This document shows positions 3,397 through 5,061 of a stretch of 64,000 nt of DNA, piece after piece. The stretch lies in the NCBI RefSeq assembly GCF_056746865.1, contig NZ_CM163382.1. One strand, 5' to 3'. The position numbers were made by a program, and so were the translations under genes. The notes under the pieces were generated by a model. It worked only from the letters and a program-made list of their open reading frames with translations, was not told the origin of the DNA and did not search any database. How positions within the stretch are numbered: position 1 is the first letter of the stretch; every line of letters starts with the position of its first letter.

Positions 3397-5061
3397 ATGT
3401 TAAAACGTATCAAAATTGTGACCAGCTTACTGCTGGTTTTGGCCGTTTTTGGCCTTTTACAACTGACATCAGGCGGTCTGTTCTTTAATGCCTTAAAGAA
3501 TGACAAAGAAAATTTCACTGTTTTACAAACCATTCGCCAGCAGCAATCCACGCTGAATGGCAGCTGGGTCGCGTTGTTGCAGACGCGTAACACCCTCAAC
3601 CGCGCGGGTATCCGCTACATGATGGATCAGAATAATATTGGTAGCGGTTCAACCGTTGCTGAGCTGATGCAGAGTGCCAGTATTTCGCTGAAACAGGCGG
3701 AAAAAAACTGGGCGGATTACGAAGCGTTGCCGCGTGACCCGCGTCAGAGCACCGCCGCAGCGGCAGAGATCAAACGTAATTACGATATTTATCACAATGC
3801 GCTGGCGGAGCTGATCCAACTGTTAGGTGCAGGCAAAATCAACGAGTTCTTTGATCAGCCAACCCAGGGATATCAGGACGGTTTCGAGAAGCAGTATGTG
3901 GCTTACATGGAACAAAACGATCGGCTCCATGATATCGCCGTCAGCGATAACAATGCCTCCTACAGCCAGGCGATGTGGATTCTGGTGGGCGTGATGATCG
4001 TCGTACTGGCGGTCATCTTCGCCGTCTGGTTCGGTATTAAAGCCTCGCTGGTAGCGCCAATGAATCGCCTGATTGACAGCATTCGTCATATTGCAGGCGG
4101 CGATCTGGTGAAACCGATTGAGGTGGATGGCTCTAATGAGATGGGGCAACTGGCAGAGAGTTTGCGCCATATGCAGGGAGAGCTGATGCGTACCGTCGGT
4201 GATGTGCGCAACGGGGCCAATGCCATCTATAGCGGTGCCAGCGAAATCGCTACCGGCAATAACGATCTCTCTTCGCGCACCGAGCAACAGGCTGCTTCGC
4301 TGGAAGAGACGGCAGCCAGCATGGAGCAACTGACCGCAACGGTGAAACAGAACGCCGAGAATGCGCGCCAGGCCAGCCACCTGGCGTTAAGTGCTTCTGA
4401 AACGGCGCAACGCGGCGGCAAAGTGGTAGATAACGTGGTGCAGACTATGCGTGATATCTCCACCAGTTCGCAGAAAATCGCCGATATTATCAGCGTAATT
4501 GACGGCATTGCCTTCCAGACCAATATTCTGGCTTTGAACGCGGCGGTTGAAGCAGCGCGTGCGGGTGAGCAAGGACGTGGTTTTGCGGTGGTTGCGGGAG
4601 AAGTGCGTAATCTGGCCCAGCGTAGCGCCCAGGCGGCTCGTGAAATTAAAAGCCTGATTGAAGACTCGGTGGGGAAAGTGGATGTTGGCTCTACGCTGGT
4701 CGAAAGCGCCGGGGAAACAATGGCGGAGATTGTCAGTGCTGTGACCCGCGTGACGGACATTATGGGCGAAATTGCTTCTGCTTCTGATGAGCAGAGCCGT
4801 GGTATCGATCAGGTTGGCTTAGCGGTTGCTGAGATGGACCGGGTAACTCAACAGAACGCCGCGCTGGTGGAAGAATCTGCCGCCGCCGCCGCCGCGCTGG
4901 AAGAGCAGGCCAGTCGCCTGACCGAAGCAGTGGCAGTGTTCCGGATTCAGCAACAGCAGCAACAGCAGCGTGAAACATCGGCTGTGGTAAAAAACGTGAC
5001 GCCAGCTACGCCGCGTAAAATGGCAGTGGCAGATAGCGGGGAGAACTGGGAAACGTTTTAA
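3397..5061 (+). CDS. tsr: methyl-accepting chemotaxis protein I (serine chemoreceptor)
   Basis: 554-aa ORF, two TM segments, HAMP, methylation helices, C-terminal NWETF pentapeptide; contains a 7-Gln run before the C-terminal tether. Confidence 0.92.

Follow-up and report, generated by a model that had tools for sequence, protein, structure and literature searches.

A 9-bp coding tandem repeat varies the glutamine tract of the Escherichia coli serine chemoreceptor Tsr

Results

tsr and its glutamine tract

The window, a stretch of 64,000 nucleotides from contig NZ_CM163382.1 (NCBI RefSeq assembly GCF_056746865.1), contains the coding sequence of the serine chemoreceptor Tsr at positions 3397 to 5061 on the plus strand. 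The open reading frame translates to 554 amino acid residues plus a stop codon, the length given in a first-pass annotation of this DNA, and its product is WP_000919543.1 in the genome 118UI. Several complete E. coli genomes match the first 25 kb of the window at 100% identity; in one of these, 118UI, the gene is annotated as tsr and its neighbors are hpaR and lgoT. The gene is Tsr (MCP-I) by all testable criteria, comprising full-length near-identity to K-12 tsr, the tsr annotation, and a C-terminal NWETF sequence after a nonconserved linker.

Positions 4948 to 4968 are exactly cagcaacagcagcaacagcag and encode Q518–Q524, the run of seven glutamine residues that had been reported. The tract is composed, on the plus strand, of a first 9-bp unit CAGCAACAG at 4948 to 4956 (Q518–Q520), a second identical unit at 4957 to 4965 (Q521–Q523), which is missing from K-12-type alleles, and a partial trailing unit CAG at 4966 to 4968 (Q524); the array delimited by TRF spans 4948 to 4969. 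Together with each unit, the trailing CAG forms a 12-nt direct repeat, CAGCAACAGCAG, which is able to misalign at a 9-nt offset. The tract is flanked by TTCCGGATT on one side and CGTGAA on the other. It lies within a 33-residue tether segment (I517–E549, positions 4945 to 5043, plus strand) between the conserved end of the helix and the pentapeptide NWETF (N550, W551, E552, T553, and F554; positions 5044 to 5058, plus strand), which is the docking site of CheR and CheB.

Repeat unit and allele series

The tsr gene of K-12 MG1655 (1656 nt, 551 residues) carries the tract CAGCAACAGCAG, which encodes four glutamine residues, and the first-pass annotation was thus right that the K-12 protein is 551 residues long with a shorter run than the seven in the window. 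The K-12 tail is given as IQQQQRETS...NWETF in a published table (PMC10561060). The two receptors share the gene, the locus, the NWETF pentapeptide, the end of the helix (…AVFRI), and the position of the tract, whereas the window has one additional 9-bp unit, seven instead of four glutamine residues, a tether of 33 instead of 30 residues, and a total length of 554 instead of 551 residues. Four substitutions, including T to N, A to T, and E to G, also distinguish the tails, and the genes differ at 25 of 1650 aligned nucleotides outside the repeat.

Alignment of the two alleles showed that their difference is one whole unit of CAGCAACAG. TRF described the tract with a period of 9 (2.4 copies, 100% match, score 44), whereas a period of 3 gave only a 78% match and a score of 30. 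When the window was shuffled 50 times by mononucleotide, no shuffle contained a perfect 12-nt match at a 9-nt offset. The TRF score of the tract is no outlier among the 29 short repeats of the window; it is the polymorphism in the population that establishes the tract as a real feature.

Among the alleles that were read, K-12 has one unit plus CAG, the window two units plus CAG, MEI3O-23 three units plus CAG (10 Gln, 557 residues), and Z1323HEC0355, RM14723, and A13 four units plus CAG (13 Gln, 560 residues). Alignment and reading showed that the 10-Gln and 13-Gln alleles contain additional copies of the same unit. Four glutamine residues were read directly in K-12, WY517-2, PMV-1, APEC O1, and MB22; seven in the window, ATCC 8739, O104:H4, O157:H7, MNCRE44, and others; and ten in HS, LF82, and MEI3O-23. 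All the alleles read are intact open reading frames of 551 to 560 residues, with one, two, three, and four units giving 551, 554, 557, and 560 residues, respectively. The repeat-length polymorphism suspected in the first-pass annotation is therefore genuine, with 4, 7, 10, and 13 Gln among E. coli genomes, but its description as a CAG/CAA trinucleotide run does not hold because the alleles differ by whole 9-bp units only.

Single-codon alleles were searched for with synthetic 6-, 8-, 5-, 3-, and 1-Gln queries carrying short conserved flanks. No allele with 1, 3, 5, 6, or 8 Gln was found with these queries in 5,342 complete E. coli genomes; there was no full-length match in a single piece, and the best genuine match was the neighboring 3n + 1 allele with a gap. 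Apparent 100% matches to the 8- and 5-Gln queries had been joined from two pieces that lie in 13- and 10-Gln alleles (spans of 116 and 107, respectively). Total loss of the unit was rejected because the 1-Gln query matched no allele, and a trinucleotide (CAG) microsatellite was rejected on the period-3 match of only 78% and the lack of single-codon alleles. Two other candidates proved to lie outside the tract: a 198-bp length variant reflected a 6-nt loss in the adjoining GCC (Ala) run, and one partial match reflected a 33-bp deletion upstream. The only variant seen within the tract was a point change in strain 2014C-3338, where a CAG of unit 3 is replaced by CAT (His).

Allele frequencies in E. 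coli

The tract region of tsr is contained in 5,342 of 5,426 complete E. coli genomes. These were surveyed with three queries, each sized so that a length difference of 9 bp falls in a separate identity band. The 7-Gln query from the window (150 nt) gave 4056 genomes of the same length, 1283 at ±9 bp, and 3 lower; by identity band, a natural 10-Gln allele (159 nt) gave 72, 4053, and 1213 genomes, and the K-12 4-Gln allele (141 nt) gave 1214, 4055, and 73. With classes assigned from alignment length and identity band rather than by reading each tract, and with counts that differ by one to three genomes between queries, 7 Gln is found in ~4,055 genomes (75.9%), 4 Gln in ~1,214 (22.7%), 10 Gln in ~70 to 72 (1.3%), and 13 Gln in 3 (0.06%). 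All rows inspected had the expected span.

The 7-Gln class includes O157:H7, O104:H4, ATCC 8739, the ST131-like MNCRE44, and strain 536; the 4-Gln class includes K-12 and its derivatives, the type strain ATCC 11775, PMV-1, and APEC O1; and the 10-Gln class includes HS, LF82, NRG 857C, and MP1. The first-pass annotation had set its reading against a 7-Gln run common to K-12 and most strains; most strains (~76%) do share the 7-Gln length, but K-12 differs from them with its 4 Gln. K-12 derivatives might inflate the 4-Gln count, but in a spread sample the K-12-type haplotypes seemed to come mostly from natural isolates.

Location of the tract in the tether

Among 42 orthologues, invariant or near-invariant residues continue without a break to F515, R516, and I517, and the next are K541 and N550–F554. 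The tract begins one residue past this boundary. In published work, R516 of Tsr is the tethering point and I517 the first residue of the tether (PMC10561060), and solved or modelled Tsr chains stop at residues 516 to 520. The end of conservation, the start of the tether at I517, and the ends of the chains together make the tract the initial segment of the arm. Its assignment to the tether that ends in NWETF was thus correct, and it can be placed at the very start. The arm is regarded as an unstructured linker of ~30 to 35 residues, put at ~35 in PMC7390727 and PMC8609364, that keeps CheR and phospho-CheB at a high local concentration around the methylation sites (PMC7390727, PMC8609364, and PMC10561060), and the same three papers cite EPR work on Tar in which the whole C-terminal segment is unstructured.

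In an AF2 model, the last helix spans residues 441 to 527 and runs through Q518–Q524, with coil and pLDDT below 50 from residue 525; pLDDT is ~66 at residues 511 to 520 and 46 at residues 521 to 530, in a model of low confidence (mean pLDDT 61.6, pTM 0.34) built as a monomer of an obligate dimer from a shallow alignment. With a predicted helix through the tract, the term tether may be partly wrong for Q518–Q524, and the tract may mark a passage from helix to coil instead of being coil throughout.

Tether length across Enterobacteriaceae

Tsr orthologues were collected from 80 Enterobacteriaceae species, with one genome per species; the set did not include E. coli, E. albertii, or E. fergusonii, and the nearest outgroups were two cryptic-clade-like Escherichia (L008 and L011). 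The orthologues are 554 residues long in 47 species, 553 in 14, and 555 in 11. Counted from F-R/H to the pentapeptide, the tether has 33 residues in 47 species, 32 in 14, 34 in 9, and 30 in 2, and this length is kept while the sequence is highly divergent. The 7-Gln tether of the window, with 33 residues, is colinear with those of the outgroups, and the tethers of K-12 and of the 10- and 13-Gln alleles have 30, 36, and 39 residues, respectively, which puts K-12 toward the lower limit of the lengths in the family.

Neither a pure glutamine run nor a 9-bp repeat was present in Tsr of any of the 80 related species. Citrobacter and Salmonella typically have a tail of the form IQQEQQRAR(D/E), and the two nearest Escherichia outgroups one of the form IQQ(T/A)QQRQHE. 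The absence of the repeat from all 80 species indicates that it is an E. coli innovation in which the 7-Gln allele keeps the tether length of the family. Because the 7-Gln length is the conserved 33 residues, K-12 looks contracted rather than the window expanded. The repeat shows 7 differences in 27 nt from the nearest outgroup, in a fast-evolving segment, and the comparison gave no clean path of origin, with a two-indel route to 4 Gln as the alternative.

Haplotype background of the alleles

A tree was made from the full tsr genes of 17 strains plus the window (18 alleles), with the tract removed and with two outgroups as the root. Alleles with four glutamine residues are spread over at least three immediate-flank haplotypes (K-12/WY517-2, PMV-1/APEC O1, and MB22), as are those with ten (HS, LF82/MEI3O-23, and 2014C-3338). 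Two sister pairs, HS (10 Gln) with WY517-2 (4 Gln) and LF82 (10 Gln) with A13 (13 Gln), differ in unit number and have identical right flanks, with nearby SNPs only on the left, at −19/−64 or −94/−100. MEI3O-23 (10 Gln) and RM14723 (13 Gln) are separated by one SNP in ~690 nt. From −442 nt onward the alleles of A13 and RM14723 do not differ, whereas 9 SNPs separate them upstream; tsr is thus a mosaic.

Parsimony on the 18 alleles required at least 8 changes when states were unordered and 10 unit steps when they were ordered, and two units were the cheapest root state, although weakly (10 steps versus 11 to 13). The same copy number on several tsr haplotypes is consistent with units having been gained and lost repeatedly by slippage. 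Judged from these flanking sequences, repeated gain and loss in situ is the favored reading, with recombination as a live partial explanation because tsr is mosaic and the sample is small.

Discussion

The glutamine tract of Tsr is a low-copy coding tandem repeat, and its variation is an ordinary in-frame polymorphism of a well-known kind. In the reading that we prefer, and to which we give a probability of roughly 80%, the tract consists of one to four units of CAGCAACAG followed by CAG, varies by slippage, had two units ancestrally, and is nearly neutral. What the analysis shows is the sequence with its 9-bp step, the allele frequencies, the lack of single-codon alleles, the tether lengths in the outgroups, and the boundary of conservation. 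The 2-unit allele is probably the ancestral state in E. coli, and the repeat variation is probably nearly neutral, with a functional effect that we infer to be small.

As for the mechanism and the direction of change, we infer that replication slippage between overlapping 12-nt direct repeats is the most likely cause. The sequence that repeats at the 9-nt offset amounts to 12, 21, and 30 nt in the 2-, 3-, and 4-unit alleles, respectively, and short direct repeats of this kind are a classic slippage substrate. Each slippage event would add or remove exactly three residues and keep the frame. Single-codon slippage would be blocked by the CAA interruptions and by CAGCAG stretches of only two codons, which would account for the lack of single-codon changes. 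The 1-unit allele would be a contraction that is possibly hard to reverse, and the 3- and 4-unit alleles would be rare expansions. With homology reduced to CAG...CAG (3 nt) in the 1-unit allele, units should be regained far less often than they are lost. The 4-Gln state would then be partly absorbing, which would explain its presence in 23% of the genomes on several backgrounds while the allele of conserved length is still the majority.

Two other accounts concern the origin of the length classes. An artefact of sequencing or assembly, such as a low-complexity stretch might produce, may practically be set aside: some technologies do miscall short repeats, but the classes of length are distinct from one another, preserve the frame, and recur in thousands of complete genomes obtained independently, assemblies of a single strain agree where several exist (HS, LF82, strain 8178, and K-12 derivatives), and the 7-Gln and K-12 4-Gln tails are carried by the PDB constructs 3ZX6 and 6S1K, respectively. 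A more substantial account, although an unlikely one as a full explanation, is that a few ancient indels were spread by homologous recombination, so that the tract is not especially mutable and mosaicism produced the mismatch between unit number and haplotype. The mosaic alleles of A13 and RM14723 speak for it, as does the dimorphic gene content downstream of tsr (lgoT or a TRAP permease), which indicates that the locus recombines, and the analysis covers only 18 alleles. However, at least three immediate flank haplotypes carry 4 Gln and at least three carry 10 Gln, and unit number differs in pairs whose right flanks are identical and whose left SNPs lie at the short distances given above. Recombination alone would have required breakpoints that closely bracket a tract of 12 to 39 nt many times, and the alleles of MEI3O-23 (10 Gln) and RM14723 (13 Gln), which share a haplotype, resemble an expansion in situ.

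It is conceivable, though doubtful, that the glutamine run extends the C-terminal methylation helix, and that units shift the height or orientation of the tether anchor by HAMP (~0.45 nm per unit) rather than the contour length. Glutamine runs beside coiled coils often prolong the helix, and the predicted last helix covers Q518–Q524, with pLDDT below 50 only after the tract. The model is poor, however, and conservation and the Tsr chains end at I517 and at residues 516 to 520, respectively. A step of three residues would also rotate a helix by 300°, and yet four allele sizes are tolerated. The Tar C-terminal segment, moreover, has been described as wholly unstructured from EPR work, as cited in PMC7390727, PMC8609364, and PMC10561060.

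By analogy with the linker-length experiments on Tar (PMC10561060), tether length may be expected to affect the reach of the enzymes. With Tar chains of 22, 29, 34, and 46 residues, the fitted peak of CheR concentration shifts by 0.128 ± 0.048 nm per residue (PMC10561060). If this value transfers to Tsr, one unit would be worth ~0.4 nm and the natural range of 30 to 39 residues ~1.2 nm, a modest effect. Adaptive tuning, in which the number of units is under diversifying or niche selection and sets CheR and CheB reach as a coarse rheostat for adaptation kinetics, seems to us improbable. The 33-residue length is kept across genera despite divergent sequence, which argues that length matters; a change of chain length measurably shifts methylation kinetics in Tar (PMC10561060); and unit number has apparently changed repeatedly with the frame always kept. 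Against tuning, 76% of the genomes share one allele, and lineages look fixed, with all sampled O157:H7 rows at the 7-Gln length and all HS assemblies at 10 Gln. The tract has at most four units, far below a hypermutable tract, and the sources of 4-, 7-, and 10-Gln strains (human, dog, mouse, soil, and water) overlap broadly. The predicted shift per unit is small, ~0.4 nm on ~10 nm, and K-12 Tsr with its 30-residue tether has been fully functional through decades of laboratory work. A related proposal, hardly less improbable, is that the 9-bp repeat serves E. coli specifically as a device for stepping the tether through 30, 33, 36, and 39 residues, with alleles that differ measurably in CheR and CheB reach and in the speed or precision of serine adaptation, and that selection holds most lineages at 33 residues while K-12 and the type strain have been shortened. 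If this were true, the quantitative chemotaxis parameters of K-12 Tsr would not be representative of the species.

K-12 Tsr is an atypical, minority allele, and the window carries the common allele of conserved length. The tether of K-12 Tsr, a standard model receptor for quantitative chemotaxis, is three residues shorter than in about three-quarters of E. coli genomes, and it also falls three residues short of the length conserved in the family. The Tsr linker (30 residues) has been described as shorter than that of Tar (34 residues), in keeping with the geometry of the methylation sites (PMC10561060); this argument is valid for the K-12-type allele only, and the Tsr linker has 33 residues in 76% of the genomes. 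The natural alleles of 30, 33, 36, and 39 residues offer a ready series for models of adaptation by tethered enzymes without engineered linkers. A search of the full-text literature, whose coverage is incomplete, found no published description of the Tsr repeat polymorphism.

Comparison with known systems

One counterpart is the engineered Tar linker series of 22, 29, 34, and 46 residues (PMC10561060), in which the distance in residues from the receptor body to NWETF is likewise varied; linker truncations of Tar by Li and Hazelbauer (2006) are cited in the same paper. The Tar series is artificial, was changed near the pentapeptide end, and has larger steps, whereas the Tsr series is natural, varies at the helix-proximal end, and moves in steps of three residues from 30 to 39. 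The Tar experiments supply the only quantitative expectation for an effect, 0.128 nm per residue. Coding VNTRs varied by slippage resemble the Tsr tract in their perfect head-to-tail copies, whole-unit alleles, preserved frame, and apparent homoplasy, but the Tsr tract has a very low copy number (1 to 4) and little diversity, with 76% of genomes sharing a single allele. Like CAG/CAA polyglutamine repeats, the tract is a pure glutamine run from mixed CAG and CAA codons; unlike them, it has a period of 9 (TRF match of 100% versus 78%) and no single-codon alleles in 5,342 genomes. Phase-variable contingency loci also place a repeat with a strain-dependent copy number inside an environment-sensing gene, but the Tsr tract has too few copies for high-frequency switching, and its alleles look stable within lineages. 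Because the unit is a multiple of 3, it causes no frameshift and no on/off switching; with the frame kept, all open reading frames intact, at most four units, and 76% of genomes at one allele, a contingency locus was ruled out, and the tract falls among ordinary in-frame coding repeats.

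Further repeat-associated variation within tsr

The glutamine codons are not the only part of tsr in which length differs between strains. A GCC run of 5.7 copies at window positions 4879-4895 encodes an alanine tract between the methylation sites E493 and E502, and the allele comparison showed that its length also varies, the tsr of MMC-J-0050 being shorter by 6 nt, equivalent to two alanine residues. A change of two residues at this point in the methylation helix would put the heptads out of register. In addition, tsr contains a 10-bp direct repeat, GCCGCGCTGG, the two copies of which (window 4858-4867 and 4891-4900) are spaced 33 bp apart. 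In strain 3PT, the interval between the copies has been deleted exactly, which removes 11 residues, including the methylation site E493, and leaves a Tsr of 543 amino acids. The 3PT deletion is a second event of slippage type within the same 100 bp of tsr. The glutamine tract itself (window 4948-4968) carries a point interruption in strain 2014C-3338, in which one codon in the third unit of a 10-codon tract is CAT (His) instead of CAG, giving the product QQQQQQQQHQ; an interruption of this kind would be expected to stabilize the repeat.

TRF also reported larger tandem arrays elsewhere in the window, namely, a 121-bp unit in 2.7 copies with a tRNA-like appearance (17829-18153), two arrays of REP/BIME-like appearance with units of 111 bp (2.3 copies; 18273-18524) and 101 bp (5.1 copies; 26117-26629), and a CAC/CAT (His-codon) run at 56673-56710.

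Gene content downstream of tsr

Two alternative gene contents were observed 3' of tsr among the E. coli strains (window approximately 5062-6471; compared loci L088-L104). In K-12, HS, O157, O104, and the window, this position is occupied by lgoT, which encodes an MFS transporter; LF82, PMV-1, APEC O1, MB22, and the strains with 13 glutamines have genes for TRAP transporter permeases there. In the window, lgoT lies directly downstream of tsr on the minus strand (5110-6471), and comparison with K-12 revealed W279*, with TAG in place of TGG at 5635-5637. The gene is annotated as a pseudogene ("internal stop") in 118UI, a genome identical to the window here. L-Galactonate transport has probably been lost in this lineage.

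Tether alleles in structures and the literature

When PDB sequences were compared with window 4597-5058, the tail of the HAMP-Tsr fusion crystal structure 3ZX6 was found to be of the O157-like type with seven glutamines, and that of the array model 6S1K to be of the K-12 type with four, a number also found in ATCC 11775, the E. coli type strain. The last residues of the 1QU7 and 8C5V chains are at positions 516-520. The Tsr tether (30 residues) has been described as shorter than the Tar tether (34 residues), in line with methylation-site distances (PMC10561060). In the E. coli census of 5,342 complete genomes, 76% encode a 33-residue Tsr tether; the published length contrast between Tsr and Tar applies to the K-12-type allele specifically.
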